64,000 nt of DNA from positions 1-64,000 of the forward strand of contig JBIOIY010000005.1 in the NCBI GenBank assembly GCA_044450345.1, written 5' to 3'. The notes under the pieces are model-generated. The model did not search any database. It was given only the letters and a program-made list of their open reading frames with translations, and was not told the DNA's origin. This document shows positions 28,381 to 50,672 of this stretch, one piece after another; within the stretch, counting starts at the first letter, position 1, and every line of letters starts with the position of its first letter. The translations under genes and the position numbers were made by a program. Source of the stretch: Thermodesulfovibrionales bacterium. GTDB lineage: Bacteria; Nitrospirota; Thermodesulfovibrionia; Thermodesulfovibrionales; UBA6898.

Positions 28381-28447
28381 AATAATTGGTAGTTTCCTGG
28401 GAGACTACCCAATAATTTGGTAGTGTCCTAGGACACTACCAATTATT
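28381..28447. repeat. Tandem pair of GGTAG...CTACC palindromes between convergent genes
   Basis: Perfect 26-bp palindrome TTGGTAGTGTCCTAGGACACTACCAA (28417-28442), preceded by a degenerate copy. Confidence 0.7.
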
Positions 28448-30806: not shown

Positions 30807-32982
30807 AGCCGTACTGGTATTGCCGGTAATAATACTCATTCTTCCTGATATCGAGTCCATTAATGACGACCCCTAGAAAATGAGCTTCGATGTCATTAAG
30901 GGATTTCAGCGCCCTGCTTACACTTTCATACGTGGTTTGTCCCGCTCTTGTCACAATAATAGTCCCATCCAGGATCTTGCTGAGGACGAGACTATCCGTG
31001 ACCGTCAGCAGAGGAGCAGCGTCCCAGATGATAATATCGAATTTCTCATTCAGCACCCCGATTAAATCGTACATCCTGCCGGAACTCAGGAGCTCTGAAG
31101 GGTTCGGAGGCACCGGGCCCGAGGGTATGATACTAAGGTTCGGTACCGTCCCCTTGCAGATGATATCGATGCCGGAGGCACCGGCAAGATACGTACTCAG
31201 CCCCTTGGAATTGTCCAGTCCGAAGATCTTGTGGATACGCGGTTTTCTCAGATCGCTGTCTACCAGAAGAACTCGATGCGCCGCCTGTGCAATCGTTATT
31301 GAAAGGTTTACCGAAGTTACCGTTTTGCCTTCACCGGGCGACGGACTCGTCACGAGAACGTTTTTCGGAGGGGTAACGGCAGAGGAAAGCAATATCGCCG
31401 TTCTCAGCACCTTGTAACTCTCCGCGAAAACAGAATGCGGTTCTTTCAAGAGTATCTCTTCCATGCTGTTTCCGCCGGACTTCAGCAGAGAGACGACCCC
31501 GAGGACCGGAACGCCCAGTTTTGTCTCGACGTCTTCGGTTGACTTGACCGTGTTGTCAAGATACTCAACAAAGAAAGCGGCCCCGATCCCCCCAAAAAGT
31601 CCTATGACCAGCCCGAGGAGAGCGTCACGGGCATTGTTCGGTTTAAAGGGCATCTTCGGAACCTCGGCCTTTTCGACGACCCACACGTCGACAGTCCGGA
31701 TGTCCTGAGAAATGTCTTGTTCCTTGATCTTCTTTATGATGGCGTCGAAGAGCTGTTTGCTCGTTTCCGCTTCCCGCTTCAACGCCTCATACTGGACGAA
31801 TTTCTCATTCAGTGTCAGTGTCTCGCTTTTTGTCTGTGAGGCCATCTTGCGAAAATTCTCTTCGTTTGCCCTGGCGAGTTCATAATCGTTCTTGATTGAC
31901 TCCACAACCCTCCTGATTTCCTGCTCCTTCTTTTCCTTCAATCCCTTCAGGTCGGCCACAGCCGTAATCATTGCCGGATGTTTCTGACCATACTTCTTCG
32001 ACATCTCTCCGATATTCTGCTCGGCCTTGAGTATCTGCACCCGCAACGACTGAATGGTAGGGTCGGACGTGATCACCGGTATCGTCTCGGCCTTGTCGGG
32101 GTTATGCATCACCTCCTTGACCTTATTGTAAAGAGATTCCAGTTCTTTTCTCCTGGACTCGGAGACCGCTATCTTTGTAGCGACTTCAGACAGCTTTTCC
32201 GGCACCATGGTAAGCCTGTTTTCGAGCGTAACGATATCTTTCGTCCTTTGATACTCCTGAAGCGTCTTTTCCGATGTTTCGAGCTTAGACTTTTCCTCAT
32301 CCGCCTTTTCGGTCAGCCACCGCATCGCATTCCTGGAAGAACTCATCTTCATATCAAGGAGGTCGTCAATGTATGCCTTTGCAACGGAGTTCACTATCAG
32401 GGCAGAGAATTCCGGGTTTGAGGACACGTACCCGATGTCCACCAGTTTGCTGTTCTTTATAGGCGTCACGACAATCGAGGCGCTTATCGTCTTTGCTATC
32501 GCAGTGGCCCTCGCATTAGCCTCCCCTTCAGAGTCTTTTTTGACGGAAGAGGTCGGATCGGGCCTGGTTATGCCGGTCACATTCAGTATTACGTTAAATA
32601 TCCCCTTAAACCAGTCTATGGTCCCCGCCACGATATTGAATCCTGTGCTATCCTTCTTAAAATAAGACTCGTAATTCTTATCAAGGGAAAGCGTCCTGAC
32701 TACCTTATTGGCGACTGAGGCACTCCTAATGAGCTGGTACTGCGTCTCATAAAAATCCGGATCATAAGACGAGTAATACATGTTCATAGGCCCGAGGTTA
32801 CCGGGCTCGCTCTTTTCTATCAAGACCTTCGTCGTCGCCACGTAAATCGGCGTTGCGGAAAAAGTCATTATCAGAGATATAGCAAACACCACGCCAAAGA
32901 ACGTGTACACCAGCTGCCTTCTCTTGACGATGACTTTCAGGTAGTCCCTTAAATGTATTTCTCTCTCTTCCATATCACTCAT
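30781..32982 (-). CDS. Polysaccharide co-polymerase / tyrosine autokinase (Wzc family)
   Basis: Wzz-like N-terminus, SPSPGEGKT, DSDLRKP, and a C-terminal Tyr cluster EYYYRQYQYGY. Confidence 0.93.
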   Translation of the reverse strand: MSDMEEREIHLRDYLKVIVKRRQLVYTFFGVVFAISLIMTFSATPIYVATTKVLIEKSEPGNLGPMNMYYSSYDPDFYETQYQLIRSASVANKVVRTLSLDKNYESYFKKDSTGFNIVAGTIDWFKGIFNVILNVTGITRPDPTSSVKKDSEGEANARATAIAKTISASIVVTPIKNSKLVDIGYVSSNPEFSALIVNSVAKAYIDDLLDMKMSSSRNAMRWLTEKADEEKSKLETSEKTLQEYQRTKDIVTLENRLTMVPEKLSEVATKIAVSESRRKELESLYNKVKEVMHNPDKAETIPVITSDPTIQSLRVQILKAEQNIGEMSKKYGQKHPAMITAVADLKGLKEKKEQEIRRVVESIKNDYELARANEENFRKMASQTKSETLTLNEKFVQYEALKREAETSKQLFDAIIKKIKEQDISQDIRTVDVWVVEKAEVPKMPFKPNNARDALLGLVIGLFGGIGAAFFVEYLDNTVKSTEDVETKLGVPVLGVVSLLKSGGNSMEEILLKEPHSVFAESYKVLRTAILLSSAVTPPKNVLVTSPSPGEGKTVTSVNLSITIAQAAHRVLLVDSDLRKPRIHKIFGLDNSKGLSTYLAGASGIDIICKGTVPNLSIIPSGPVPPNPSELLSSGRMYDLIGVLNEKFDIIIWDAAPLLTVTDSLVLSKILDGTIIVTRAGQTTYESVSRALKSLNDIEAHFLGVVINGLDIRKNEYYYRQYQYGYGDRDTSV

Positions 32983-32987
32983 CCCGC

Positions 32988-33782
32988 TCAGAAAAAACTC
33001 TCGGGAACGACTATAATGTCACCGGCCATGACCGGTTCGTCCATCGCCGCCCTTTCGATGATCTTCTCTTTCCCATCGACTTTCCGAATGATCTTTATCC
33101 TCCCCTGCGATGCCTTGTCAGTAAATCCCCCGGCCATCGTTGCAGCCTTGATCACGGTAGTGCCTTCCTCGCATTTATAGGCATCGGGCTTCTTGATCTC
33201 TCCCGTGATATAAAAAACACCTGCCTTGGCGATATATACGTTATCGTTGTCCAACAAGAGAACATCCGAAGAAGTGTCCCCCTCTTCAACGAGTTTCTTG
33301 AGGTCGATGGTAATGATACTTTCCTGTTTTACGGGCGAAACGGTCTTCCTTTTTATTACGGCTTTGTCTCCGGCCTCCTTGGTGAGGCCCCCGGCCCTGG
33401 ACAGCAGTTCGAGGAACGTAGTGTTCCCGCTGAGCGCGTAAATACCCGGTTTGTTCACCTGCCCCATGATAATGGTCTTCCTGCTTCTAAACTCTTCGAC
33501 AAAAACAGATACATGGGGGTCAACGATATACCCGTCGGCGAGAAGATCGGTTATCTCTTGAGCGATCTGTGAAGTAGTCAGTCCCGACACTTTAATCGCA
33601 CTTATCAGCGGCAACTTTATGAACCCGTCGCCGCTTACCCGCGCCACAGCAGTAAGATCGGGATGATCGTATACCGTGATCTTCAGCACGTCCTCTTCCC
33701 CAACCAGGTAATCCTGGGCAAAGAGAATACCGACGTTCCAGAAGATAACGATGCCCAGCATGAGTATAAGGTATTTTCTCAT
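32988..33782 (-). CDS. Polysaccharide export protein (Wza/OPX, SLBB domains)
   Basis: YLVGEEDVLKITV, DGFIKLPLI, GQVNKPG, AGGFT. Confidence 0.9.
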   Translation of the reverse strand: MRKYLILMLGIVIFWNVGILFAQDYLVGEEDVLKITVYDHPDLTAVARVSGDGFIKLPLISAIKVSGLTTSQIAQEITDLLADGYIVDPHVSVFVEEFRSRKTIIMGQVNKPGIYALSGNTTFLELLSRAGGLTKEAGDKAVIKRKTVSPVKQESIITIDLKKLVEEGDTSSDVLLLDNDNVYIAKAGVFYITGEIKKPDAYKCEEGTTVIKAATMAGGFTDKASQGRIKIIRKVDGKEKIIERAAMDEPVMAGDIIVVPESFF

Positions 33783-33848
33783 TGTTGCTACTTATACAAA
33801 TTATAGAATAAATGGGGGAATAAATACACGAACGTGCTGTCGCAGAAG

Positions 33849-35438
33849 CTAGAGCGAGCCCGTCACCCTGAAAAAAATGGTATTACTGGAATAGTTGAAA
33901 TCAGGGAAATTGGACTCCCTTGTCGCATACGTGTAGTAAATCCCTGCCTTGAGCCATTTTCTGAAATCGTATTGGAACCCGAGAGTGGCCTGATAAAGAT
34001 TGTCTCTTCTCTTCGCGGTATTGCCGCCGAAGGTCAGATCCTCCCCGTAACTCTCCTGAGTGTACCCCAGGTCCAGAGACCCTGTGATCTTGGAGGTGAG
34101 CATCTGTTGATATCTCACCGCGAAGGCATTCGTAAGCACAAAGAAGGTGGAAGGTATGTTGGACTCGTCAATCCTCCTCGATGCAGTTAATGTCAAAGAA
34201 GTCTTCGGGGTAAATTTATGATCCACATTGCCCTCAAAGACAAAAGTCCTGCTATTTGCCACTGGATCCGAGAAGTCCCGGAGGCTATAGCCTGCCCTGA
34301 CGCTCCCCTTTGATTTAGCCGTGATTTGCCACTCCATGCCCAAGAGGAAATTATGCTCCTTGCTGTTGAGAGAGGCGTCGTTCGAATATCCTATATCCTT
34401 AAAGACATATTCAAAGAAAAGTGACGTCTTAGATCGGAGTTTGTAGAAGAGATACGTCGAAAACGAATTATCCACCCGGTCTCTCAAGGAGTTCCTTTCG
34501 GCATCATAACTCACAAGAAAGTGGGAGTAATCAAAACGGAACCGGAGCTTGTTGCCCGTGTCGTACGACAACATCGCATAAAAAAGATTGCTGTTATATT
34601 GGTCCACTTCGCCCGGGCCAACCAGCACCGACGTATCGGTCGTCTCATAATTTCTTGAGAATTCGTCGTTCACTGCTATAGAAAGACCGCCGCGGAAATT
34701 ATAGGCAAGGCCCCCCTGCACGTTTTGGGTTATCATATTCCCGGAGGGGGAGTTCTGCGAATGAATTGGGATGTCCGACTGGTAGAGCAAAAATGCCTGG
34801 TAGCGTTTCGCTGTTCCTCCCCCTTCCCTGCTCAAAGAGAGCCCCCCCCCTGAACGCGGGTCAATGAGACCCAGACCCTCAGGTTTCTCATTTACTCCCG
34901 GCATTGATATCCAGACTTCGGGGGACAGGACCGTGTATAGGTCGCTTTTTTTGTCCGTCCTGGTGTTGAATGCGTTGTCGGTGTAGATTTCCGAGACGGT
35001 CAAGTCTGCATGGAAATATCTCGCCGAACGCAACAAGATATCCGTGGCTGTCTTCTTCTTTCCGACAGGAGGTTCAGCTTCGGAAGAAAGTCCCGGCTCA
35101 CCGCTACCTTTGGGAGGCGGTTTTTGCATACCGGCCGCCGGTTCCCGGTGTATGATTACAAAGACTCCGTATACCGTCTTGCTGTCCTTTGCTTCATACT
35201 CACGGAAATACGTTTCGAAACCGTCGCTTCTGATCTTCTCAGAGAGCTTTTCCGCCTCCTCTCTTGTCGTAAACACCGATATCTCGACCTCGTTCTGGGG
35301 ATCTTTCTTGCCGGCACTTCCTTCCTGCGGTATGCCTTCTTTTTGCCCGGCGAAACAGACGGGATTTGGGAACAAAAGACTACTGATCAAAAAAGCAGTT
35401 ATACAACTAATTATGCTACCCAGCGCCCATTTTATCAT
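33849..35438 (-). CDS. Outer-membrane beta-barrel of polysaccharide export loci, with an N-terminal SPOR-like segment
   Basis: Amphipathic beta strands, YTDNAF, terminal FFRVTGSL; F.TREEAEKL..KI...GFETY resembles SPOR. Confidence 0.7.
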   Translation of the reverse strand: MIKWALGSIISCITAFLISSLLFPNPVCFAGQKEGIPQEGSAGKKDPQNEVEISVFTTREEAEKLSEKIRSDGFETYFREYEAKDSKTVYGVFVIIHREPAAGMQKPPPKGSGEPGLSSEAEPPVGKKKTATDILLRSARYFHADLTVSEIYTDNAFNTRTDKKSDLYTVLSPEVWISMPGVNEKPEGLGLIDPRSGGGLSLSREGGGTAKRYQAFLLYQSDIPIHSQNSPSGNMITQNVQGGLAYNFRGGLSIAVNDEFSRNYETTDTSVLVGPGEVDQYNSNLFYAMLSYDTGNKLRFRFDYSHFLVSYDAERNSLRDRVDNSFSTYLFYKLRSKTSLFFEYVFKDIGYSNDASLNSKEHNFLLGMEWQITAKSKGSVRAGYSLRDFSDPVANSRTFVFEGNVDHKFTPKTSLTLTASRRIDESNIPSTFFVLTNAFAVRYQQMLTSKITGSLDLGYTQESYGEDLTFGGNTAKRRDNLYQATLGFQYDFRKWLKAGIYYTYATRESNFPDFNYSSNTIFFRVTGSL

Positions 35439-38376: not shown

Positions 38377-39333
38377 TTATTTCGCACATCGGAAACCAAT
38401 ATCCCGGCTTCTTATCGCGGGATCGAGCCAATAACGGTATGAACTCCTCAGCATTTTTTCTTCGCTTTCTTCCCATGACCCCCCGCGAAGCACCTTGAAA
38501 ATTCCGATCGGCGGCCCCTTAGGGTCATATTTCGGCGGCATATCAGGCCCCTTTTTGTCTTTTGTCTCCGGCTTCTTGTCGGTCCCAATTAGTCTGGAAG
38601 CGTTCTCCAAATAATCAGCGCTGTCAGGATCACAGTAATTACAGTAATTCTGCCGGTACCAGTCATTAACCCACTCCCGGCAATTTCCGGCCATATTGAG
38701 AACGCCGTAATACGAAGCCCCTTCGGGAAGAGCATCTACCGGGACCATCGCTCTCAACCCCTGCCCTTCCCATTTTTGGTGATATCTGGCCTTAACGTCA
38801 TCCGCCGGGTCGTCACCCCAGGGGTAAAGCCTTCCCTCATTTCCCCTCGCCGCCTTCTCCCACTCTGCCTCGAACGGCAGACGTTTCCCCTTCCATCGAC
38901 AGTATTCATCTGCTCCGTACCATGAGACGTTGTTGGCGGGATAGTTCTCAAAACCCTTACGGGGGGCATACTGCGGATTTCCGCTTTTGCCGTTTCTTTC
39001 CTTTTCTTCGACTATGGTCGAGTAATCGTCGGAAGAAAAATATTTATTATCAGGGTTGCCTTTCTCGTTGAGAAACAGGGCAAAATCCCTTGCGGATACC
39101 TCATACTTGTCCATCATGAAGGCATCCAGGAAGACATCATGCTCCGGTCTTTCATTCAGTTCCGAATTATTGGCCCCCATCTTGAACCAACTCTCGCTAA
39201 TGATGACCATGTCAGTGGCTTCCTCGGAGGAAAAATCGACTCCTTTGTTCTTATTCACTGATGAACAGGAGATAAAGAGGAACACCGAAGCGAGAGAAAT
39301 AAAAAAAATGCCGGCTAATCTTCGTCTTCTCAT
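38377..39333 (-). CDS. FGE-sulfatase (SUMF1) domain lipoprotein
   Basis: Lipobox-like FISC, FKMG, ERPEH.V.LD.F.MDKYEV, RLPFEAEWEKAARG, NMAGN..EW, RGGSW, GFRC. Confidence 0.88.
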   Translation of the reverse strand: MRRRRLAGIFFISLASVFLFISCSSVNKNKGVDFSSEEATDMVIISESWFKMGANNSELNERPEHDVFLDAFMMDKYEVSARDFALFLNEKGNPDNKYFSSDDYSTIVEEKERNGKSGNPQYAPRKGFENYPANNVSWYGADEYCRWKGKRLPFEAEWEKAARGNEGRLYPWGDDPADDVKARYHQKWEGQGLRAMVPVDALPEGASYYGVLNMAGNCREWVNDWYRQNYCNYCDPDSADYLENASRLIGTDKKPETKDKKGPDMPPKYDPKGPPIGIFKVLRGGSWEESEEKMLRSSYRYWLDPAIRSRDIGFRCAK

Positions 39334-39855
39334 CGTCTGTATTATACATTTTTTCGAGGGCGCGTCAACACAAGCCCGAAAGGGATTTTTCCTGGAAAAA
39401 GCAATCCGGAAAAGGCTCCGGTCTTCCAGGCTGCGCTCACCTTGCTATAATCCTTTGCCAAAATTACCCCCTACCCAGGTAGGATTGAATATCCGTCTCA
39501 TAAATCGCAAACTATACATAAATAGCGGAGTGAATTGATTATTTTGTCGCCAGGCTTCTCAACATGGCAGTAAAATGTTATTATTATTAATCAAAAATTA
39601 TAAAAAAGAGTTGTCTGCCAACTCGGAGAGAAATATGCACAAAACAACTTCTTCAGGTATGGCCAACGTAGTGTCTCATAAAGACCCTTTTTCTAATTAT
39701 CATGCCGGCTTCTCCGGCCTGAGACTCATAGAGAATCTTGAAGAAGGATTGCATACAAGCCGAAACTACATCCGGCGTAATCATACTTGCTTTCCTTACG
39801 GTACGTATTTAGTTTCGAGTAATAACGTATGTCCCTATGTAGCGGAGGTATAGCA

Positions 39856-42800
39856 ATGTCTAAAAAGAAATTCACAAAATCGACACTCATCCTTTTTAAG
39901 CTGTTATTAGCTCTTACATTCTTATTATTTTGCGCGACATACGGCTATGCCGCCGGTCCTGCGGGCTACTCGGAATACTATATTCCGGGTGACGAAGACG
40001 ATATGGGCCTCGTCCTCTGCTCCTATGGGGCGACTGCTTGCCCCGCAGGCTACCACATGCACACCGTGATCAGCGTGACCGCCTGGTCGGACAACACGAC
40101 AATCTATTACGACCAATGGGAAAACGGCTATAACTTTGATCCGAACAACCCCGGTGCTACTGCCGATGAGACATACACGCTCAACGCTGGTCAGGTCATG
40201 GTTTTCGAGAGCGCAAACATAGCCTTACCCCGCACTGCTACCCCCCCGGCAACAACTTGCACCAACTACCGCAACGGGACACTTATCGGCACCTCTACGA
40301 CTTGCTACGACGGAAAAGACAGGATCTACGTGGCGGGAGGAACTGTAACAGTCACGCGCGTAAGCTACATTGAGGAGAGGGGTGTGGGTCTCCAGGGGGC
40401 GGCGTGGGAGATCTACCCTCTCCAGCCACAGTTGACGACCTATGCCGTCCCTTTTGGGGAAACCAACGGTTGGTACGGCTTCCAGCGAGTGAGCACACTC
40501 ATCCAGGCCACGCAAAATAATACTGTTGTTACCGTGGACCTCAACCACGACGGCACCCCGGACCCATTATATACCCAGGCTGGCGTCCTCATTGGTCCCA
40601 GCGTCACGCTGCAACAAGGACAGACCTTTCTGTTGAACGACGTGAGCGCTAACGTTGCCGCGGGGACCATGGCCGGCGGAGCGATAATCACGGGGTCCAG
40701 TACGCTTCAGGTCAAATACCTCGCCGGGCGTACGGACGTTAACAATTGCACGCGCGGGTTCAGCGCCTTTCCGCGCGGATTCTGGACAAAGGACTATTAT
40801 GCGCCGCTAAGCCAGCCCGGCGTAGATCTCACCGGGCAGGCGAGCGACACCGACTACTACCTGTATAACCCAAACTCTGCTGCCATCACGGTTAACTGGC
40901 AAGGCACCGCCACTTCGGGGTCATTCCCTATCCCTGCCACCTCCACCGTCTCTTTCCGGACGGCTTCGGGCGGCGCGGTACCGACCGGCTCGGGGCTTTA
41001 TTTCAATGGAAGCGATATCTTCTGGGGGGTCGGTTCAAACGATACCGATAACATCGGCGGCGCGAGCGGATACGCCCACGAGTGGGGATTCAGCCTGCTG
41101 CCGTCTACTATGCTCTTCACAGAGCACTATCTCGGCTGGGCCCCTGACGGCCTTCCCCTTGCTGCCGGGCAAACCGAGATGGGCGTCTTTCTCACACCCG
41201 CCCAGGACAACACGCGCGTCTTCGTGGACTTCAACAACGACGGCATTATCGATCAGACGTATACGCTGAACCGGTTGCAGACCCAGTACATCACAAATCC
41301 CAACGGCGACTTGTCGGGGGCGCACTTCTGGGCGAGCGGCCCCTTCACCATGGCCTACGGCCAGAACTCCGCCACATCGAACCTCAGTTCCCCCGCGCTG
41401 GACCTCGGCTACATCGCCATCCCCGGAAGCGACTTTGTCTCCCTTGTACTCACGGTTGCCAAGTCCGTCAGCCCACAAGTCGTGCCCACTGCGTCAGGTT
41501 CAGTTGCGACATTCACGATCAAGGTTGACTCCCAAAAATACACGGTTGATGGGGTGAACGTCACCGACTATTTGCCGCCGAACTGGAACTACGTTGTCGG
41601 CACAGACACCACAACCATAACTAGACCTGACCTGACCACGGTCACCGGCTCTTCAGCAGACCCTACGAAAACCGGCGCCGGACCTTACACCCTCACCTGG
41701 AGCAGCGCCCAGCTCGGCACGAACGGAACTCCCGGTATGGCCACAAACCAGGAGGTCACTATCACCTTCACCTCACGGACAACGGCTGTACTTGCCGTCG
41801 GAACTTTGAGCCAAAACAAGGTAAAGGCCGTCGGTACAAGGACGTTCGGCACGCCGAGTCAGACACAAACCTTCACGGCATCAGACTTCGTCTACGTTAC
41901 CTCCGGTGCAGTCACCATCACTAAAACATCGAGTGTTCCTGCTGCTACCCCTGTTTCTCCCGGCGACAGCTTCACGTACTCCGTGGTGGTTGCCAACCCG
42001 TCTGCTAGCGGAGTCACTTTGACTAACCTCTCGCTGTACGATGCTCTGCCCACCGGCGTGACCAATGTCGCTGGGACGACCACCATCAGCCGCGCATCAA
42101 CTGTCGCAGATACTTTCACGACCCAGGCATACAGCAACAACGACGGCACCCAACCCTGGGCAGGCAACTGGACCGAGACGGACATTAGCGGAACAAACCC
42201 CGGCCCCGCCGGGCCGACTACGGGGTTTGTGCAGGTCGCAGGCAATGCGCTGAGATTCGGATATCAGGCTTCAAACGTGGCCGACAACTTCAACACGGGC
42301 AGCGTCTTCACTCAGAATGACGGCAACACCAACTGGTCCGGAAACTGGACGGAAACCGGCGATAACAATAACCCCGCCACAGGAACCATCCAGTTCAATG
42401 TGGCTGCGGCCGGGAAGGTCGATTTTACGAGATGTGGTGCGGCCGGCTGCAACATCCAGAGGTCAGCTCCGTTCTCGGGAGGCAATGTCACCATAAGCTT
42501 TGTGCTTACCCAGAATGGTCTTGCAGTCAACGAGTTTCTGGAGGGTGACTACAGCCTCAATGGCGGCACAACCTGGGTCGGTATGCAGAGGATTACAACG
42601 GGCAACGCACTTTCAACACCGCCGGGCGGCTGCGGCAATCCATGCACGATCTCCACTGCTGGCGCCACTTCGCTTACAGTTCGTTTCCAGGAGACTACTC
42701 GGTGGGCCACCAACACCCACCATGCGCAGGTCGATAATGTCAACATCGCCTTTAATGATTCCATCGGATCTGCCGCTCAGCGGACCGCGAACCTTACCGG

Positions 42801-45800
42801 CGCTACCAGCGCAACGCTCAACTTCACTTACGCTTCCGCGAACCTCGCGGGGACCGATACTGTGGTAGTCCAAGCGAGCAATGCCGCAGCCGGGCCCTTC
42901 ACCACACTGGCGACGTTTACTGCGGGAACTCCTAATGTTGCGCCCCCATACAATCTGACTACTTATATCTCGGCCAACACCACTATTCGATTCCTTGTTA
43001 CGGGCGGAATCAACGCTCCGACCAAGACCTTCTCCGTCGATAACGTCACATTGGCCTATAACACATCCCTGGCAGGCGCTAATCCGCCTGAACTGGTCTC
43101 TTCCAGTTCCGCCTACAATCTTACTCCCGGCGAAACACTTACAGCATCTTTCGACGTTACAGTGGACAATCCCCTGGCAGCAGGGATCGACACCATAACC
43201 AACACCGCCTCGACAACATCAACCCAGTTCCCGATACAACTCAGCGCGAGCGTCACTAATCTTGTCGTCAACCCTTCTTCCGGGAGCGCCAGTGTGGGAA
43301 ATAGGGTCTGGCTGGACTCAGACGGCGACGGCGTACCGGAAGTGGGAGAGCCCGGTCTGGCCAATGTGGAGGTGATGCTGAAGGACCAGTTCGGCACGCC
43401 GGTTATGGTGACTACCACTGACGCCACAGGGCATTACCAGTTCACTGGCGTGAAAGCCGGAAGCGGGTATTATGTCGAGGCAACCTCAAGTACCATTCCG
43501 TCCGGGTTGACCCAATCCGCCGCAACCGGTAGTAACAACCGCACGAGTGCCTTCAATCTGACCGCGGGTCAGTCTTATACGAGTGCGAACTTGGGGTATA
43601 AACCTGTTACTGGGACTGCCACCATCGGCAATTTTGTATGGTCCGATGCAAACGCCGACAACATACGTAATCCCGGTGAGCCCGGCATAGCCGGAGTTAC
43701 CGTCAGACTTTACATAGACACTAACCGCAACGGCACCTACGAGGCCGGGACCGATACCCTTTGTACTATCGCCACTTGCGGTACAAACGGCACTACCACA
43801 ACCGCTCCGGACGGAAGCTATTTGTTTACCGGCGTGACCGCCAGCGGAACTCAGGATTACATCGTTTATATCGACGAGACAGCCCTATTGGCAGCGGGAT
43901 ATGTGCGGACGTCTCCTCCCAGCGGCGGCCCCCTGTTCTCTATCATGAATGTCAGCGCCGGGGCCTCCATCCTCTATGCGAACTTCGGCTATCAGGGGAC
44001 GACATACTCGATCGCAGAACGCGTCTGGTTTGATGTCAATGGTAGCGGCACTCCGGACGCAGGCGAATCAGGGATTGGCCTGGTGACGGTTGAACTGCTT
44101 GATGCCAGCCTCAACGCGATCGCAACTACAACGACTGACGCCAATGGGTATTTTACTTTCTCCGGAGTGAAGGGGGGCGGGGCCAACTACACAGTCAAGA
44201 TCACCGACACGAACGCTGTACTGGCCAATTATTTCGGCACAACTGTCGCAGCTACGGCCGGCAGTGAAAAAATCAATAACCTCAGCGGCAATATCGACTA
44301 TACCTCGACGCCTCATTTTGGGTTTAATCTAAGCAGGAGCATCAGCGGCACCGTGTTCAACGACAATGGGGCCGGCGGCGGTACCCTTGGCGACGGCATC
44401 AAAAACGGCAGCGAGCCTGGAATCTCCGGGGTGGTCGTAAAATTATACAACGACGCAAACGGTAATGGGCAGATCAATGCACCTAGCGATGCCGTGATCG
44501 CCACCGTAACGACCGATGCCAACGGCAACTATATTTTCTCCGGTCTGAGCAACGGCAATTACATCGTCAGTATCGAATCACCTCCTGCCGGGTACACGTA
44601 CGCCGGGACCGATAGCGATGCAGGCACCACGGGGCAGCAGAGAGCAGCAAGTATTGTCAGTAACGGCAACGCGCCGAACATAAACTTCGGGTATCATGCT
44701 TCTACGCCCCGCAGTGTATCAGGCACGCTGTGGGAAGACACCAATAAGAACGGTGTTATGGATAGCGGTGAGGCCGACATATCTGGAGTGACGATCGATT
44801 TGCTCAATGCAAGTCTCGCCGTTGTTGCCACCGCAACCACGGACGCCCACGGCTTTTACAGCTTCACCGGCATAGCAAGCGGCACTCCTTATTATGTCAA
44901 GATTACCGACAACAACGGTGTTTTGAGCGGATACACTCCAACCTACCAAATTACCGGGGGCACCGCAGGTCCTTTCACAGGGCAGGAAACCGTTAATCTG
45001 AGCAGCGGGGACAAAAACGGCGTCAATTTCGGCTACTATAATCCCATCCCCACTCTGGCTGTCATCTCTTATTTCGGTGCCTATGAAAAAGACGGCAAGG
45101 TTATAGTACAGTGGGAGACGGCCTCTGAGATAAATACACTGGGATTTAATCTTCTCAGGCTCGATCCTCTCACGGGAGAATACAAGCAAGTCAATTCGGG
45201 TCTCCTCCCCTCTATGCTCAAGCCCCACCGGGGGGGGAAATATACCTTCAAAGACACCGGGTCCCTGCCAGGAAAAACCTATACATACAAGCTAATCGAG
45301 ATTGAAGTGGATGGGAATGAGCGGTCCTATGGCCCATTCGCAGTCTTCCCCGCAAGGATAACGGATGACAAAGGTCTTGACCTCTCCACCAATGCAGATT
45401 ACGGACGGACTGAGCGTGACAAGCCTGAAATGCATAAGGTCCGCACAGACGGTAGAAAGTCCGGGCAGCCGGGCAATGTCAAGACTGGAAGCGGAGAACG
45501 AATAAAAATATCTGTTATGGACAGCGGGATTTATTACGTGGATGCGAAGGACATCTCCTCTTTACTCGGGATATCTGCGGACAAGATCCCTTCCATGATA
45601 GGTCACGGCCAGTTGTCTCTGAGTAATCAGGGCAAGCAGGTCGCCTATCTGCCTGCAGCAAATAACGCCGGCCTTTACTTTTACGGGACAGGGATAGACA
45701 GCATCTACACAAAAGAGAACGTCTACTGGCTCGACAAGGGCGCAGGGACACTCATGCCCGTGGTTGAGGGCACAGGCCCAGCGCCGTCGCCGGAGGGAGG

Positions 45801-47574
45801 CAGCTTCACCGAGACAGTGCATCTTGAGGAAGATGTGATTCCGTGGGAAACACTTTTCAACGACCCCAATGTCGATTACTGGTTCTGGAACCAGATATTT
45901 GCGAGCAATTTTTACACCGATCCCGCGAGGAGTTTCACGTTCCAGCCGCTTGGGCCGGCTCCCCAGACCACGGCCGTGATGCAGGTTCATCTTTTCGGCG
46001 GATCAGATGCGGGAGTAACGAATGACCACCATGTTGTGGTGAGTCTCAACGGTCTGTCGGTAGAGGACTGGTGGAGCGGTTTGACCCCCCATACCATTAC
46101 CGGAAGGTTTCCTTTGCAGCCGGGCGAAAACATCATTACGGTAGCGGCTGAGGCCGACGAAGGGGTTTCGTCGAGTTTTATTTTAATTGATTCATTCGAT
46201 ATTACTTATAAGCGGCTTTACGATGCTGACGGCGACAAACTCTTCTTCAGAGGAGACGGAGCCCCGTCGGTGACCATCGGAGGATTTGCGTCAGCCGGCA
46301 TCAAGGTCTTTGACCTCACGAATCCCATCATACCGAAATTAAATGCGGCCACCACGATCGAATCTTCCTCAGCATCAGGGACGGCCAGCTATACCGTCAG
46401 CCTGAAACCCGCTTCTGCAAATACCCCTTATATTGCCGTAGCTTCCGCAGGGATAAAAGCGGCGTCTGCCAAGGCGGCGTCTTTTTCCAAACTTTCTGCG
46501 AAGCAAAATTCGGCCGACTACATCGTCATCGCCCCTTCTGAATTGGTTTCCACCGCCCAGGGCCTTGCCGACTACCGGGCAGGACAGGGTATGAAGACGA
46601 TGGTGGTGAATCTGGAAGATATCATGAACGAATTCAACTATGGGATATCAAGCCCGGAGGCTATTAAGTCATTCCTGTCTGTTGCCCATTCGAAATGGAA
46701 AAAGTCACCAAGATATGTAGTCCTGGTCGGAGACGGAAGCTTGGACTATAAAGATAATCTGGGATTCGGCGGGAACCTCATTCCATCGAAGTTGGTGCCT
46801 ACCGACTTTGGTCTTGCCATGTCGGACAATTACCTTGCAGATATCAACGGAGACCATCTGCCGGAGATTGCCATTGGAAGACTGCCGGTAGCAAACCCTG
46901 CCGAGTTGCAAACCGTCATCGGCAAGATAAAGACCTATGAGCGCAACCTCGGAAACACCCGCGTGGTCCTCGTGGCTGATACTCCCGGTGATGGAGGAGA
47001 CTTTATCGCCGATAGCGAAACGCTTGCGGGCCTTTTCCCATACGGCTATGCTCTCACCAGGATCTACCTGGACGACCCGGCTATAGTCGACGCAAAAAGG
47101 GCGGCCCTCATAAGCGCCATAAACCAGGGGGCGGCTTTCTTTAATTATGTGGGGCATGCCGGGCCCGATCAACTTTCTAATTCAGGGTTGTTGTCTTATT
47201 ATCCCTATCCTGAGTACAATCCGCCTACAAACGATTTGCCTTCGCTGACAAACGCAGCCATACTGCCGGTGATGACCGCCATGACATGCGGACTGGGTAA
47301 TTTCTCCGACCCCTACGAAGACGTGCTGACGGAGGCGCTGCTGCTGAAGTCGGACGGTGGAGTTGCCGCCGCGTGGTCGCCGACAGGACTTTCTGATGAT
47401 TCGCAGGCGGGGATTCTCAACCGTGAGTTTTATAAGGCAGTCTTTTCCGCCAAAAAAGCTGTACTCGGTGACGCGGTCCTTCAGGCGCTTTCGGTTTACA
47501 AGAAGCAGGGATCGATGCCGTTTATGATGGATACCTATTGCATACTGGGTGATCCTGCCCTTAGAATAAGGTAA
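39856..47574 (+). CDS. Giant secreted protein (~2570 aa): Ig-like/DUF11 domains, five SdrD-B-like repeats, C-terminal C25 (gingipain-like) cysteine peptidase
   Basis: GGAGG then ATG 39856; signal peptide; DUF11-like VAKSVSP/ITKTSS..FTYSVVV; five G..VW.D....G.....EPG repeats; C25 motifs ADYIVI, YVVLVGDG, SDNYLAD, IAIGRLP, YVGHAG, MTCG, LGDP. Confidence 0.88.
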   Translation: MSKKKFTKSTLILFKLLLALTFLLFCATYGYAAGPAGYSEYYIPGDEDDMGLVLCSYGATACPAGYHMHTVISVTAWSDNTTIYYDQWENGYNFDPNNPGATADETYTLNAGQVMVFESANIALPRTATPPATTCTNYRNGTLIGTSTTCYDGKDRIYVAGGTVTVTRVSYIEERGVGLQGAAWEIYPLQPQLTTYAVPFGETNGWYGFQRVSTLIQATQNNTVVTVDLNHDGTPDPLYTQAGVLIGPSVTLQQGQTFLLNDVSANVAAGTMAGGAIITGSSTLQVKYLAGRTDVNNCTRGFSAFPRGFWTKDYYAPLSQPGVDLTGQASDTDYYLYNPNSAAITVNWQGTATSGSFPIPATSTVSFRTASGGAVPTGSGLYFNGSDIFWGVGSNDTDNIGGASGYAHEWGFSLLPSTMLFTEHYLGWAPDGLPLAAGQTEMGVFLTPAQDNTRVFVDFNNDGIIDQTYTLNRLQTQYITNPNGDLSGAHFWASGPFTMAYGQNSATSNLSSPALDLGYIAIPGSDFVSLVLTVAKSVSPQVVPTASGSVATFTIKVDSQKYTVDGVNVTDYLPPNWNYVVGTDTTTITRPDLTTVTGSSADPTKTGAGPYTLTWSSAQLGTNGTPGMATNQEVTITFTSRTTAVLAVGTLSQNKVKAVGTRTFGTPSQTQTFTASDFVYVTSGAVTITKTSSVPAATPVSPGDSFTYSVVVANPSASGVTLTNLSLYDALPTGVTNVAGTTTISRASTVADTFTTQAYSNNDGTQPWAGNWTETDISGTNPGPAGPTTGFVQVAGNALRFGYQASNVADNFNTGSVFTQNDGNTNWSGNWTETGDNNNPATGTIQFNVAAAGKVDFTRCGAAGCNIQRSAPFSGGNVTISFVLTQNGLAVNEFLEGDYSLNGGTTWVGMQRITTGNALSTPPGGCGNPCTISTAGATSLTVRFQETTRWATNTHHAQVDNVNIAFNDSIGSAAQRTANLTGATSATLNFTYASANLAGTDTVVVQASNAAAGPFTTLATFTAGTPNVAPPYNLTTYISANTTIRFLVTGGINAPTKTFSVDNVTLAYNTSLAGANPPELVSSSSAYNLTPGETLTASFDVTVDNPLAAGIDTITNTASTTSTQFPIQLSASVTNLVVNPSSGSASVGNRVWLDSDGDGVPEVGEPGLANVEVMLKDQFGTPVMVTTTDATGHYQFTGVKAGSGYYVEATSSTIPSGLTQSAATGSNNRTSAFNLTAGQSYTSANLGYKPVTGTATIGNFVWSDANADNIRNPGEPGIAGVTVRLYIDTNRNGTYEAGTDTLCTIATCGTNGTTTTAPDGSYLFTGVTASGTQDYIVYIDETALLAAGYVRTSPPSGGPLFSIMNVSAGASILYANFGYQGTTYSIAERVWFDVNGSGTPDAGESGIGLVTVELLDASLNAIATTTTDANGYFTFSGVKGGGANYTVKITDTNAVLANYFGTTVAATAGSEKINNLSGNIDYTSTPHFGFNLSRSISGTVFNDNGAGGGTLGDGIKNGSEPGISGVVVKLYNDANGNGQINAPSDAVIATVTTDANGNYIFSGLSNGNYIVSIESPPAGYTYAGTDSDAGTTGQQRAASIVSNGNAPNINFGYHASTPRSVSGTLWEDTNKNGVMDSGEADISGVTIDLLNASLAVVATATTDAHGFYSFTGIASGTPYYVKITDNNGVLSGYTPTYQITGGTAGPFTGQETVNLSSGDKNGVNFGYYNPIPTLAVISYFGAYEKDGKVIVQWETASEINTLGFNLLRLDPLTGEYKQVNSGLLPSMLKPHRGGKYTFKDTGSLPGKTYTYKLIEIEVDGNERSYGPFAVFPARITDDKGLDLSTNADYGRTERDKPEMHKVRTDGRKSGQPGNVKTGSGERIKISVMDSGIYYVDAKDISSLLGISADKIPSMIGHGQLSLSNQGKQVAYLPAANNAGLYFYGTGIDSIYTKENVYWLDKGAGTLMPVVEGTGPAPSPEGGSFTETVHLEEDVIPWETLFNDPNVDYWFWNQIFASNFYTDPARSFTFQPLGPAPQTTAVMQVHLFGGSDAGVTNDHHVVVSLNGLSVEDWWSGLTPHTITGRFPLQPGENIITVAAEADEGVSSSFILIDSFDITYKRLYDADGDKLFFRGDGAPSVTIGGFASAGIKVFDLTNPIIPKLNAATTIESSSASGTASYTVSLKPASANTPYIAVASAGIKAASAKAASFSKLSAKQNSADYIVIAPSELVSTAQGLADYRAGQGMKTMVVNLEDIMNEFNYGISSPEAIKSFLSVAHSKWKKSPRYVVLVGDGSLDYKDNLGFGGNLIPSKLVPTDFGLAMSDNYLADINGDHLPEIAIGRLPVANPAELQTVIGKIKTYERNLGNTRVVLVADTPGDGGDFIADSETLAGLFPYGYALTRIYLDDPAIVDAKRAALISAINQGAAFFNYVGHAGPDQLSNSGLLSYYPYPEYNPPTNDLPSLTNAAILPVMTAMTCGLGNFSDPYEDVLTEALLLKSDGGVAAAWSPTGLSDDSQAGILNREFYKAVFSAKKAVLGDAVLQALSVYKKQGSMPFMMDTYCILGDPALRIR

Positions 47575-47583
47575 AATACAAAT

Positions 47584-47901
47584 ATGTCTAGTGGTACAGC
47601 AGAGGACAATATCTGGATAAAGGTATTCGAGAGGCCGAAGAACATCGTCTCCCGCAGTATCGCAGGAGAGCTTTTTCTCGTCCCGGTTGCGGGAAAACTT
47701 GCCGATATGCAGAGGATGTTCGCTCTTACTGCGGTCGCTGAGTTCATTTGGGAGAGGCTGGACGGCCGAAGGAGCCTGGATGATATCCGCAACGATGTTC
47801 TGGAATATTTTGACGCCGAGGAAGAACAGGTCGAAGCTGATATCAAGGCTTTTGTGACCGAACTTATGGCAGAGGGCCTTCTCATTGAGGTAACTGGCTG
47901 A
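47584..47901 (+). CDS. PqqD-family RiPP recognition element
   Basis: R.IAGE.FLVP, L..VA.FIWE.LDG, I...V.EYFD......DI..FV.EL...GL. Confidence 0.9.
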   Translation: MSSGTAEDNIWIKVFERPKNIVSRSIAGELFLVPVAGKLADMQRMFALTAVAEFIWERLDGRRSLDDIRNDVLEYFDAEEEQVEADIKAFVTELMAEGLLIEVTG

Positions 47902-47903
47902 CC

Positions 47904-49025
47904 ATGCAATGTCACGATACAAAATGGCCGGACACAGGAGAATATCTGGAGGAGTTTATTGCGAAGGCCGAACAGCTTCATATCCCCCTTGCCGGAAGCC
48001 TGGAACTGACCCACCGATGCAATCTCAACTGCGTCCACTGTTATCTTGGACAGCAGGCCAAAAGGCAGGTACTTCGGGACCGCGAGATGAGCGCAGCCAG
48101 GATACACACTTTAATCGACGAGATTACGGAGGCCGGTTGTCTGAATCTGCTGATCACAGGGGGGGAGCCCCTTCTGAGGGAAGATTTTCCTGAGATTTAT
48201 CGCCATGCAAAGGGAAACGGGCTGTTGGTCACAGTCTTTACCAATGGGACGATTATCGGGGAGAAGACTATCGAGCTGTTCTGTGATCTCCCTCCTGTTG
48301 AAGTCGAGATAAGTGTATATGGCGCTACGGAGCATGTTTATGAGAGCATTACGAGCGTCCACGGATCATATAAGAAATGCCTGCTGGGCATCAGAGGTCT
48401 TTTGGAAAACGGCGTCAGGGTGAACCTTAAGACAATCCTCATGACCATAAACCGTCATGAGTTTACAGACATGGAAAATATGGCGAAGGAACTCGGCGTC
48501 AGGTTCCGTTTTGATGCTGCAATATCGCCGCGCATGGACGGTGACAATTCGCCGCTCGGCCTTCGCGTCCCGCCGGAGGAGGCCATAGAGAAAGAAATGT
48601 CCGGTGCCGGGAAGGTGGAAAGCTGGAAAACTTTTTTTGAGAAATTCAAAGACCGCACACTTGGTTCCGGCCTCTACGGCTGCGGTGCAGGCCTCACCGC
48701 CTTTCATATAGACCCTTTCGGCCACATTCTTCCCTGTATGATGGCCCTTGATATGAGATACGACATCTCGGAGGCAGGATTTAAGGAAGGATGGGACAAT
48801 ATTATGCACCGCATAAGGGATAAAAAGACTGCAGCCGACTTCGCCTGCAGGGGATGTGTTAAGATAAATCTCTGCGGTTACTGTCCGGGGTTTTTCAGAC
48901 TGGAAAATGGTCTTGAAGACGTCCCTTCTGAATACATCTGCCGGATGGGCGGCCTTCGTTATGAATATATTCACGATCATGCAATGAAAGGAGATCATGG
49001 TGGACAACCAGAAAAAGTCAGTTGA
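47904..49025 (+). CDS. Radical SAM/SPASM peptide maturase
   Basis: CNLNCVHC, TGGEPLLR, TNG; SPASM-type CGAG..IDPFG.ILPC..CRGC....LCGYCPG..C. Confidence 0.92.
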   Translation: MQCHDTKWPDTGEYLEEFIAKAEQLHIPLAGSLELTHRCNLNCVHCYLGQQAKRQVLRDREMSAARIHTLIDEITEAGCLNLLITGGEPLLREDFPEIYRHAKGNGLLVTVFTNGTIIGEKTIELFCDLPPVEVEISVYGATEHVYESITSVHGSYKKCLLGIRGLLENGVRVNLKTILMTINRHEFTDMENMAKELGVRFRFDAAISPRMDGDNSPLGLRVPPEEAIEKEMSGAGKVESWKTFFEKFKDRTLGSGLYGCGAGLTAFHIDPFGHILPCMMALDMRYDISEAGFKEGWDNIMHRIRDKKTAADFACRGCVKINLCGYCPGFFRLENGLEDVPSEYICRMGGLRYEYIHDHAMKGDHGGQPEKVS

Positions 49026-49176
49026 CAGGCTGCCGTATGCGAAACCAAGGTTGAGAATCATCACCCTTGTCGCTGAGGAAGTCCTCGCGATATCATGCAA
49101 GCAGGCCACTGGGGCGCCTGCAAAGAATGGACATGGGTGCGGATTTCCCAGTTGCCGTGCCGCAGGAGGCTCATAA
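48997..49176 (+). CDS. Putative RiPP precursor peptide, 59 aa (MVDNQKKSVDRLPYAKPRLRIITLVAEEVLAISCKQATGAPAKNGHGCGFPSCRAAGGS)
   Basis: Missing from the ORF track. AAGGAG at 48988-48993; YAKPRL leader motif; Cys/Gly-rich core; fills the gap between the rSAM and kinase-like genes. Confidence 0.85.
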   Translation: MVDNQKKSVDRLPYAKPRLRIITLVAEEVLAISCKQATGAPAKNGHGCGFPSCRAAGGS

Positions 49177-49209
49177 TCATGAGATGGATATGAGCCGTTA
49201 CGGAACTGG

Positions 49210-50133
49210 TTGTTTTTGAATATCGTTATCGCTGATATTCATTTCCGCATACGCTCCGGAGATATGCCCCTTCTGAATGACCCCTCGCGAAGAACCTATG
49301 GGCCGTTCATCGCAGACAGAGTCTCTTCCGGCGAAGGGGCCGCAAGCATTGATATCACCATTGAGGCAAGAGACTTCCCCAACACCGGGCAATTAATAAA
49401 GATATTTGAAACTCCGGATTCCTGGTCTATGTTCAGGGACGGAGACCAGTATTTCTGGATGGATATCTCTGCATCGTTGGGAGGGAAGCCGGATTATGTT
49501 GCCAGTTTCCATCGGCGGCCTGAAAAGGTGACGGTCTATTGCGGGGAATCTTTTGTAACGGAAAGAGACGGCAAAAAAATGCTCATGAACCCCATCGCCT
49601 ATCCCCTGGACCAACTCTTACTTATGTATGCACTGGCGGAAAGGGAAGGTGCCTGCATGCATGCAGCCGCCCTTGATTTGGACGGTAAGGGATATCTCTT
49701 TCCCGGCAGATCGGGCGCCGGCAAGAGCACGATTGCGCGAAGCTTCACAGCCAGAAACCGTGCCTTATTGAGTGACGACAGGGTGGTCGTCAGGAAGATA
49801 GGCGACAAATTCAGGTGCTTTGGGACACCATGGGCCGGCGATGCCGGGATTGCCGAAAACAGGAGTCTGCCTCTCAACGGAATCTTTTTCATCCATCATG
49901 GGAATGAAAACAGGATTGAAACAATAACACCGAGAGAGGCATTTGAGAGACTCATGCCTGTGACTTCCATCCCCTGGTACGATGATAAAGTCATGCCTGC
50001 CGTACTCTCTTTCTGTGAAGATCTGGCCCTGCATGTGCCCGCCTATGTCCTGCACTTCACGCCGGACCGCAGGGCCGCGGACTTGATTGAAGGGTTCGTT
50101 TCGGATAAGGAAATACATGGCGCTATTCCGTAA
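49210..50133 (+). CDS. HPr-kinase-like P-loop protein (ScmC/lasso-kinase-like)
   Basis: MHAAAL, GRSGAGKST, LLSDD, GTPW.G. Confidence 0.8.
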   Translation: MFLNIVIADIHFRIRSGDMPLLNDPSRRTYGPFIADRVSSGEGAASIDITIEARDFPNTGQLIKIFETPDSWSMFRDGDQYFWMDISASLGGKPDYVASFHRRPEKVTVYCGESFVTERDGKKMLMNPIAYPLDQLLLMYALAEREGACMHAAALDLDGKGYLFPGRSGAGKSTIARSFTARNRALLSDDRVVVRKIGDKFRCFGTPWAGDAGIAENRSLPLNGIFFIHHGNENRIETITPREAFERLMPVTSIPWYDDKVMPAVLSFCEDLALHVPAYVLHFTPDRRAADLIEGFVSDKEIHGAIP

Positions 50134-50148
50134 AGGATTACCTTAGGC

Positions 50149-50592
50149 ATGTTAGACATCGGCAGGGAAAATTTCCATGATATAGCGAAAGAGGTACTGG
50201 GAAGCGGCAAAGGTCTTGTCTTTGTGGCAGGCGGGAGCAGCATGTCGCCCTTCATTAAGCATGGGGATACCGTAGAGATACGACCTGACAGATCGTTACG
50301 GTTGGGCGATGTCGCTTTCTTAAGGAATCAGGAAGGCCGACTCGTATTGCACAGGGTCATAAAGATGACGGGGGCCGGCATAATTACGAGGGGCGACGCG
50401 GTCGAAGGGGATGACGACTTCACCCCGTTCGGAGATGTGCTCGGCAAGGCGGTCAAGTCTTCAGGATATAATTTTCATCTGAAATTCCCGTTCAACCGGC
50501 TCATAGCCCGGGGGTTCATCCGCCCTTCGAAACTCTCGCGAAACAGATTGTTATTCCCTCTCGCCAAAAAGATTGCCTCCCTCCTCGGTTGA
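50149..50592 (+). CDS. Soluble S24/S26-family serine peptidase
   Basis: GSSMSPFIKHGD, GDVAF, VLHRV, TRGD; no TM segment. Confidence 0.8.
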   Translation: MLDIGRENFHDIAKEVLGSGKGLVFVAGGSSMSPFIKHGDTVEIRPDRSLRLGDVAFLRNQEGRLVLHRVIKMTGAGIITRGDAVEGDDDFTPFGDVLGKAVKSSGYNFHLKFPFNRLIARGFIRPSKLSRNRLLFPLAKKIASLLG

Positions 50593-50672
50593 GGGGAGAA
50601 ACAGCATTATTTATTACGCTGTCCGGCACGCCTATTTCTCTTTTAATGCGATAGCCGCGGAGACCGTACGAG

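Follow-up and report, generated by a model that had tools for sequence, protein, structure and literature searches.

The window analysed here is a stretch of 64,000 nucleotides (positions 1–64,000 of contig JBIOIY010000005.1, assembly GCA_044450345.1) from a Thermodesulfovibrionales bacterium of the phylum Nitrospirota. It contains an operon of six genes encoding, in order, a giant protein with a C25 cysteine peptidase domain, a PqqD protein, a radical S-adenosylmethionine (SAM) enzyme, a short peptide, an HPr-kinase-like protein and an S24/S26 peptidase. We focus on the peptide gene (48997–49176 including the stop codon, + strand), a conserved and selected gene that is locked to four enzymes and is very probably the real precursor of this cassette. 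Its open reading frame (ORF) starts with ATG and comprises 59 codons plus a stop, with cysteines at positions 34, 48 and 53 of the translation. An AAGGAG at 48988–48993 precedes the ATG by 3 nt and an in-frame GTG at 49000 by 6 nt; given that several close homologues begin at this GTG position, translation may start at one codon or the other, the GTG giving a peptide of 58 aa instead of 59. The first 29 nt of the ORF are shared with the 3′ end of the radical SAM ORF. An earlier reading of the window from its letters alone (hereafter, the sequence-only reading) had reported this ORF with the same boundaries, length, upstream AAGGAG, overlap and cysteine positions, all of which are exact in the window sequence.

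Conservation of the peptide gene

Taken alone, a 59-codon ORF is unremarkable since short ORFs are common (14 kb of the window contain 100 with 40 aa or more), and the peptide has no matching model in Pfam or NCBIfam. Both facts would suit a chance open frame, or a small non-substrate protein that merely lies between two genes. What raises this ORF above chance is its conservation. In a collection of 5.8 billion proteins we found 10 homologous peptides of 58–65 aa with 57–88% identity, the matching proteins being named ‘hypothetical protein’ or not at all, and the ESM Atlas holds clusters of about 59 aa that are all unnamed ‘hypothetical protein’ entries. A pattern scan of one genome per species identified relatives at 59 loci in 59 genomes, beside the same enzymes. 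These genome records, all of them metagenome-assembled, represent about ten phyla, including Nitrospirota, Acidobacteriota, Desulfobacterota and others. Run against 1.84 billion proteins, a profile of 60 peptide sequences recovered 998 representative relatives (counted at 50% clustering) at E ≤ 1e-3, of which 255 also passed E ≤ 1e-10; a peptide profile gave no match to PDB chains at E ≤ 10. When the leader was compared with that of the closest locus (L003), 9 synonymous and 1 non-synonymous codon changes were counted over 31 codons, indicating purifying selection in this frame.

To count synteny, six-frame ORFs of the 59 loci found through the peptide (peptide-first loci) were searched with the window proteins. 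The radical SAM enzyme was present in 56 of the 59 loci, the three misses having at most 352 bases upstream before the locus ends, and the kinase also in 56 of 59, with at most 482 bases downstream at its three misses. PqqD was detected in 54 of 59, four of the five misses being at locus ends. In every locus that holds the radical SAM gene (56/56), the peptide gene either adjoins it or is parted from it by PqqD alone. One locus labelled Acidimicrobiaceae (L047) has the order C25, radical SAM, peptide and kinase, with no PqqD gene detectable within 1.9 kb upstream and 3.8 kb downstream. Gene order varies at L016, L017, L027, L031, L033–L035, L039 and L061, and at L048: several Acidobacteriota-labelled loci have the order radical SAM, peptide, PqqD and kinase, the S24 peptidase being encoded on the other strand, and at L048 the peptide lies ahead of both PqqD and the radical SAM gene. 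At another locus (L004:2952–7026), the C25 and radical SAM genes are overlapping fragments in different frames next to intact peptide and kinase genes, due either to assembly frameshift errors or to a decaying copy.

The association was also recovered from the enzyme side. In a reverse search of 401 genomes from the same phylum as the window, 30, counting the window's own, proved to have an orthologue of the radical SAM protein at E ≤ 1e-60. Among the other 29 loci (rSAM-first loci), all of which have PqqD, 26 have a full-length family peptide adjoining the enzyme, and L078 has one that is broken off by the contig end. The sequence of L068 stops one base past the enzyme and is not assessable, leaving 28 loci, of which 27 carry the peptide. 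Distant members among these peptides follow the pattern P-E-E-A-V-L ... C-K ... C ... C. The sole assessable locus with no family peptide is L088, where a VapB/VapC-like antitoxin/PIN pair directly follows the radical SAM gene and the kinase gene is inverted (L088:2540–4017), and which looks like a disrupted cassette. A family spread over about ten phyla, with a leader/core pattern, purifying selection in frame and recovery from both the peptide and the enzyme side, is hardly to be expected of a chance frame. We rejected that explanation as contradicted by the 59 conserved loci, the 27 of 28 rSAM-first loci and the codon changes relative to L003. The sequence-only reading had taken the peptide to be the substrate of the neighbouring enzyme and had proposed looking for its conservation beside homologous radical SAM genes. 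That conservation is now seen from both sides, and the substrate assignment is supported by the 56 of 59 and 27 of 28 loci at which enzyme and peptide occur together.

Leader and core of the peptide family

The precursor divides into a leader (residues 1–31; 48997–49089, + strand), with a variable N-terminus followed by Y14-x-x-P17-x-L19 and A26-E-E-V-L-A31, and a predicted core (residues 32–59; 49090–49173, + strand) with x-G/S-C34-K35, C48, C53 and G58-S59 and hypervariable positions between them. Invariant in the 60-sequence alignment are Y14, P17, L24, A26, E28, V29 (Val in 60/60), C34, K35, C48 and C53, with I22, E27, L30, G58 and S59 kept in at least 90% of sequences. Position 19 is L, I, M or V and position 31 is A, G, S or T in all 60. 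Mean column identity is 0.77 over residues 12–31, compared with 0.27 over residues 1–11 and 0.27 over the variable core positions. The spacing from the Tyr to Val29 is fixed at 15 residues in 82 of 82 pattern-matched sequences, 67 of 149 having escaped the pattern. Exactly three cysteines occur in 59 of the 60 peptides. The last residue is Ser in 59 of the 60 aligned sequences and in 144 of 149 representatives, and the 26 full-length rSAM-first peptides end in Ser (24), Thr (1) or Asn (1), the tail beyond Cys53 being 5, 6 or 8 residues long in the 60 sequences. Immediately before the core stand V-L-A, the end of the leader's EEVLA, and the third core position is Gly in 50 of 60.

Variation within the core can also be seen between strains. 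A contig of a closely related strain from soil-metagenome DNA run X1 covers 47021–50648 (3.6 kb) with 32 differences, 7 of which fall within 38 nt of the core (49108–49145, codons 38–50) and none in the leader. Six of the seven change a residue, which may reflect diversifying selection within a population. A conserved leader joined to a fast-evolving core is the usual signature of a precursor of peptides that are made on the ribosome and modified after translation (RiPPs), and the family shows both generic marks of such precursors, namely a short gene conserved beside a maturase and a conserved leader with a variable core.

We considered a lasso peptide and rejected it, as there is no cyclase or B2 protein among the cassette genes, no conserved Asp/Glu acceptor and no Thr at −2. 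The window core has neither Asp nor Glu, as is the case for 38 of the 60 cores. The sequence-only reading had likewise held that this is not a typical lasso core and that it offers no Asp/Glu acceptor, and the wider family agrees with it on both points.

Recognition protein and radical SAM enzyme

The PqqD protein (47584–47901, + strand; 105 aa; Pfam PqqD 3e-16) is a discrete RiPP recognition element (RRE). A profile of its 54 orthologues ranks the lasso B1 protein TbiB1 first among solved structures (E = 1.5e-10, nearly full length), followed by two 2026 entries, a ‘lasso peptide biosynthesis PqqD family chaperone’ and a ‘PqqD family protein’, and then by PqqD itself (3g2b, 2.6e-6). According to the accessible text of one report on lasso peptides, the leader motif YxxPxL lies at −17 to −12 and is bound by B1 (PMC10368454). 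Since the window protein is nearest to the lasso B1 recognition proteins, the description of the leader as lasso-type, first made in the sequence-only reading, holds; the invariant Y14 and P17, the L/I/M/V at position 19 and the fixed spacing all agree with it. That reading had also suggested a structure prediction of PqqD with the leader, and a co-fold of PqqD with the peptide lends weak support: three runs gave an interface score (ipSAE) of 0.54, a pass in the weak band, whereas the best of 3 controls scored 0.00, and the partner's predicted local distance difference test (pLDDT) score was 52–53.

The radical SAM/SPASM peptide maturase (47904–49025, + strand; 373 aa; Pfam Radical_SAM 1.8e-22) carries a Cx3Cx2C motif (C39, C43 and C46) and seven SPASM cysteines (C260, C278, C315, C318, C324, C327 and C346), all conserved in 53 orthologues. 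It thus has the Cx3Cx2C motif and SPASM auxiliary-cluster cysteines that mark sactipeptide and ranthipeptide maturases. Among solved structures it comes closest to SkfB (6.4e-14), a decarboxylase, PqqE and CteB, with SkfB and CteB being thioether-forming enzymes. All NCBIfam scores are far under their cut-offs, the best being the mycofactocin maturase MftC (109.4 bits versus 265), and the models of the curated maturases AlbA, SkfB, StsB and PapB give 62–75 bits against cut-offs of 300–850. Judging from these sequence features and the three invariant Cys, thioether formation at these cysteines, as the sequence-only reading had suggested, is plausible, and we place it a little short of an even chance.

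Kinase and candidate leader peptidase

The HPr-kinase-like P-loop kinase (49210–50133, + strand; 307 aa) scores 33.8 bits with Pfam Hpr_kinase_C (cut-off 33.3) and gives weak ScmC/HprK matches in NCBIfam. It shares with 50 orthologues the P-loop (G166-x-S-G-A-G-K-x-T174) and S188-D-D-R191, which lines up with L-I-A-D-D-R in HprK/P, and its AlphaFold2 model (pLDDT 94.3) has ATP-PEPCK and HprK/P as its best folds. Searched by sequence against the PDB, it returned matches to the P-loop region only and no solved lasso kinase. Homologues of this kinase in paeninodin-type systems phosphorylate the C-terminal Ser hydroxyl of the linear precursor and recognise little else, according to the available text of PMC8498205. 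Given a near-invariant terminal Ser and an equally conserved HPr-kinase-like gene, phosphorylation is predicted here, and we lean slightly towards the C-terminal Ser as the residue modified by this kinase.

The same two features, a kinase linked to the peptide as tightly as the radical SAM enzyme (56/59 each) and a narrow Cys53–Ser59 spacing set by a tail of 5, 6 or 8 residues, would also fit a lanthipeptide-like route, in which Ser59 is phosphorylated, the phosphate is eliminated to leave dehydroalanine and a Cys thiol adds to it, with the radical SAM enzyme performing, say, epimerisation or C–C coupling. We consider this very improbable: a lyase or cyclase homologue was not found in the cassette, a dehydroalanine at the C-terminus would be unstable, and what the HprK-like kinases known from RiPP pathways leave behind is a stable (poly)phosphate, as far as the accessible text of the two relevant reports goes (PMC8498205; PMC13381572).

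The last gene of the operon encodes a soluble serine peptidase of the S24/S26 (archaeal/SipW) type (50149–50592, + strand; 147 aa; Pfam Peptidase_S24 24.8 bits). The best NCBIfam match, archaeal-type signal peptidase I, is under its cut-off (4.5e-9). S31-M-x-P34, H68-R69, D83 and D89 are conserved in 41 orthologues, and there is no room for an N-terminal membrane segment, as the stop-to-stop frame opens only 15 nt upstream of the gene. In the peptidase LppS of the linear polyphosphorylated peptide (LPP) family, the catalytic residues are S29, H68 and D93, and the LPP leader is cut only when the RRE presents it, as stated in the available text of PMC13381572. By analogy, the window's SipW-type Ser/His enzyme is probably the leader peptidase of the cassette. 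A homologue is present at 40 of the 59 loci, with 7 of the 19 misses having less than 650 bases downstream.

The giant C25 protein and the surroundings of the operon

The first gene of the operon (39829–47574, + strand), the stop of which is 10 nt ahead of the PqqD start, encodes a giant secreted repeat protein of 2581 aa with SdrD_B repeats and a C-terminal PorU/gingipain-like C25 cysteine peptidase (Pfam Peptidase_C25 1.3e-73 at residues 2231–2580; NCBIfam PorU 204.8 bits versus a cut-off of 420). His2443 and Cys2487 are kept in at least 90% of 42 homologues. This protein is the sole PorU-like match in the window's genome. A search of that genome (91% complete) for GldM and SprA, markers of type IX secretion, came back empty, a negative of little weight given that the control genomes were silent too. 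C25 homologues occur at 48 of the 59 loci. Of the 11 misses, 6 are truncated loci and the other 5 have more than 4 kb upstream and still no C25 gene; the divergent rSAM-first loci gave no C25 match within the approximately 1 kb of upstream sequence present. From the five loci and the divergent ones together, it appears that the peptide system can exist without C25.

These counts bear on a further explanation, in which the peptide is not a free natural product but the starting material for a peptide-derived cofactor or a small cross-linked subunit that serves the giant C25 protein. Pyrroloquinoline quinone (PQQ), mycofactocin and the QhpC gamma-subunit of quinohemoprotein amine dehydrogenase are precedents. 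The giant protease gene abuts the cassette and is found at 48 of 59 loci, the radical SAM enzyme has MftC as its top NCBIfam match, the recognition protein matches PqqD, and neither an exporter nor an immunity gene is conserved. The few fixed core positions (GCK, two Cys and the terminal Gly-Ser) would also suit selection for a small chemical unit over a shape. We nevertheless find this explanation unlikely, as the C25 gene is absent from the five peptide-first loci with more than 4 kb upstream, every cofactor-family score is far under its cut-off, and the core between the fixed residues changes fast even among strains, which is commoner for bioactive RiPPs.

When the flanking ORFs of the 59 loci were clustered, no further gene family beyond the six was widely common, the widest occurring in 9 loci, and there was no recognisable transporter among the 12 largest clusters. 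An M48/Ste24-like peptidase is present at 7 of the 59 loci. Just upstream of the giant gene in the window is a lipoprotein-like FGE-sulfatase-domain protein (38377–39333, − strand) with weak NCBIfam matches to EgtB and to GldK/PorK of the type IX secretion system (73.9 bits versus a cut-off of 350), a homologue of which is found in one other locus, L023. Further upstream lies an exopolysaccharide-type locus (28443–35438, − strand) encoding an O-antigen-ligase-like/TPR protein, a chain-length/tyrosine-kinase-like protein, a polysaccharide export protein and an EpsL/PEP-CTERM-associated outer-membrane protein. The first and last of these genes have weak NCBIfam hits, and the middle two are named from a reading of their translations. 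Homologues of these upstream genes were seen at only about 4 of the 59 loci, the 7-kb upstream flank being mostly filled by the giant gene.

Proposed maturation pathway

On the whole we judge it probable that the ORF encodes the ribosomal precursor of a modified peptide that is handled as follows. The free-standing recognition protein of the PqqD type, akin to lasso B1, would grip the leader via Y-x-x-P-x-L and present the core to the radical SAM/SPASM enzyme, which would act on the three invariant cysteines. The most likely products of that enzyme would be Cys-derived thioether crosslinks of the sactionine or ranthionine type. The HPr-kinase-like enzyme would phosphorylate the near-invariant C-terminal Ser, the residue that homologous kinases modify on lasso precursors of the paeninodin type. 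Removal of the leader would fall to the soluble SipW-type Ser/His peptidase, probably aided by the recognition protein and most likely by a cut after V29-L30-A31, as with LppS in the LPP family; this site is favoured by a small residue at −1 and a hydrophobic one at −3. Outside the cell, the product may be processed, bound or attached by the giant PorU-like C25 surface protease. The sequence-only reading overlooked three of these elements: the terminal Ser together with the kinase, the SipW-like candidate for the leader peptidase and the giant C25 protease that usually heads the operon.

Several observations weigh against this proposal. With regard to expression, an RNA library (run X18) yielded only two 151-nt contigs on the radical SAM gene and none on the peptide ORF, and as this library may contain DNA, these contigs say nothing of transcription or translation. 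The passing co-fold may reflect solved complexes of lasso RREs with their leaders that the predictor had learned. For the crosslinks, the top NCBIfam match of the radical SAM enzyme, MftC, is not a thioether synthase, and no acceptor residue is conserved in the core across the 60 sequences. The likeness of the kinase to HprK by sequence is confined to the surroundings of the P-loop. In Bsf and LPP, the two experimentally studied systems outside the paeninodin type, the kinase targets Ser3 of the core and not a terminal Ser, according to the accessible text of the two reports (PMC10368454; PMC13381572), and core position 3 of the present family, unlike that phosphosite, is mostly Gly. The S24/S26 peptidase is missing from 12 loci with at least 3 kb downstream. 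The predicted cut can be placed only loosely, anywhere from V29 to A31, as the lasso (Tyr at −17) and LPP (Tyr at −16) registers point one or two residues earlier. Finally, no exporter is conserved that would bring the product to an extracellular protease.

A more specific and rather speculative version, which we think unlikely, is that the lasso-derived recognition, kinase and peptidase module, joined to the radical SAM/SPASM enzyme, yields a cross-linked, C-terminally phosphorylated mini-peptide that partners the C25 protein, either attached to the surface or exopolysaccharide by sortase-like transpeptidation or serving as a modified subunit or regulator of the protease. If true, it would tie RiPP chemistry to cell-surface assembly in uncultured Gram-negative phyla, a link previously unknown. 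The operon also prompts one to ask why peptide-maturation genes should be accompanied by a giant PorU-like surface protease. With the substrate gene identified, the proposed pathway becomes directly testable by heterologous expression.

Comparison with known systems

In this widespread cassette, lasso-type recognition is combined with a radical SAM enzyme and a serine kinase, along with two proteases, one signal-peptidase-like and the other a giant surface protein. Our literature search found no description of the peptide family or of the cassette, lasso-kinase work aside, and the supplements of PMC13381572, which were not opened, could list relatives. The phosphorylated lasso peptides paeninodin and Bsf share with it a YxxPxL leader, a B1-type PqqD protein and a homologue of HPr kinase that modifies the precursor in its linear form, according to the available text of PMC8498205 and PMC10368454. 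The window cassette differs in having a radical SAM/SPASM enzyme in place of the asparagine-synthetase-like cyclase C and the transglutaminase-like B2 cysteine peptidase, neither of which is among the six cassette genes or the widely recurrent flanking families of the 59 loci (the rest of the genome was not searched), and its family has no conserved Asp/Glu acceptor at position 7–9 and no Thr at −2.

Similar to the sactipeptide and ranthipeptide systems (SkfB, CteB, AlbA and PapB), the cassette combines a radical SAM enzyme with a full SPASM domain, a short Cys-bearing core and leader-dependent recognition. However, the recognition domain is fused in those systems and separate here, and the kinase, SipW-type peptidase and C25 protein are foreign to them. 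PqqD-like, HprK-like and radical SAM/SPASM parts are also found together in SynChlorMet (SCM; TIGR04248–TIGR04251: ScmD, ScmC, ScmE and ScmF), the models of which are the best or near-best NCBIfam matches for the window's PqqD protein and kinase. The scores are all far below the cut-offs (39.8/100, 38.5/125, 82.3/400 and 75/400 bits), and there is one radical SAM enzyme in the window cassette compared with two in SCM. We know of no precursor identified for SCM. The mycofactocin precursor ends in Gly-Val-Tyr, whereas the window peptide ends in Gly-Ser, and the MftC score of 109.4 bits is under the cut-off of 265.

The LPP system of Bacillota (LppA/LppB/LppK/LppS; Popov et al., Nat Commun 2026, PMC13381572) is also among the closest known systems. 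Its accessible text describes a YxxPx(V/L)-type leader, a discrete RRE (LppB), an HprK-like kinase (LppK) that polyphosphorylates Ser3 and a SipW-type peptidase (LppS). Common to both are therefore the YxxP leader, the discrete lasso-like RRE, the HprK-like kinase and the SipW-type signal peptidase I, the last at 40 of the 59 loci in the window family. In the same text, LPP clusters are often found within capsule or polysaccharide loci, and the paeninodin clusters of Bacilli are placed in capsule loci too; the window cassette likewise lies beside exopolysaccharide genes. As described there, LPP has no radical SAM enzyme or other core-modifying enzyme, no Cys-rich core and no C25 protease; the window cassette adds a radical SAM/SPASM enzyme and a Cys-bearing core and usually follows a giant C25 protease gene. 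The LPP phosphosite is Ser3 of the core, whereas the window family conserves only the terminal Ser. The NTP-transferase and MsbA-like exporter of LPP were neither found in the window cassette nor recurrent in the 59 loci. In place of the LPP cleavage and phosphorylation motif FET-xxS, the window leader ends in EEVLA, and 50 of 60 sequences have Gly as the third residue of the core. LPP is described in the accessible text as restricted to Bacillota; the present family thus carries the newly described part of SipW-type signal peptidases in making RiPPs, and that of HprK-like kinases, beyond that phylum and couples them to radical SAM chemistry (cf. PMC13381572).

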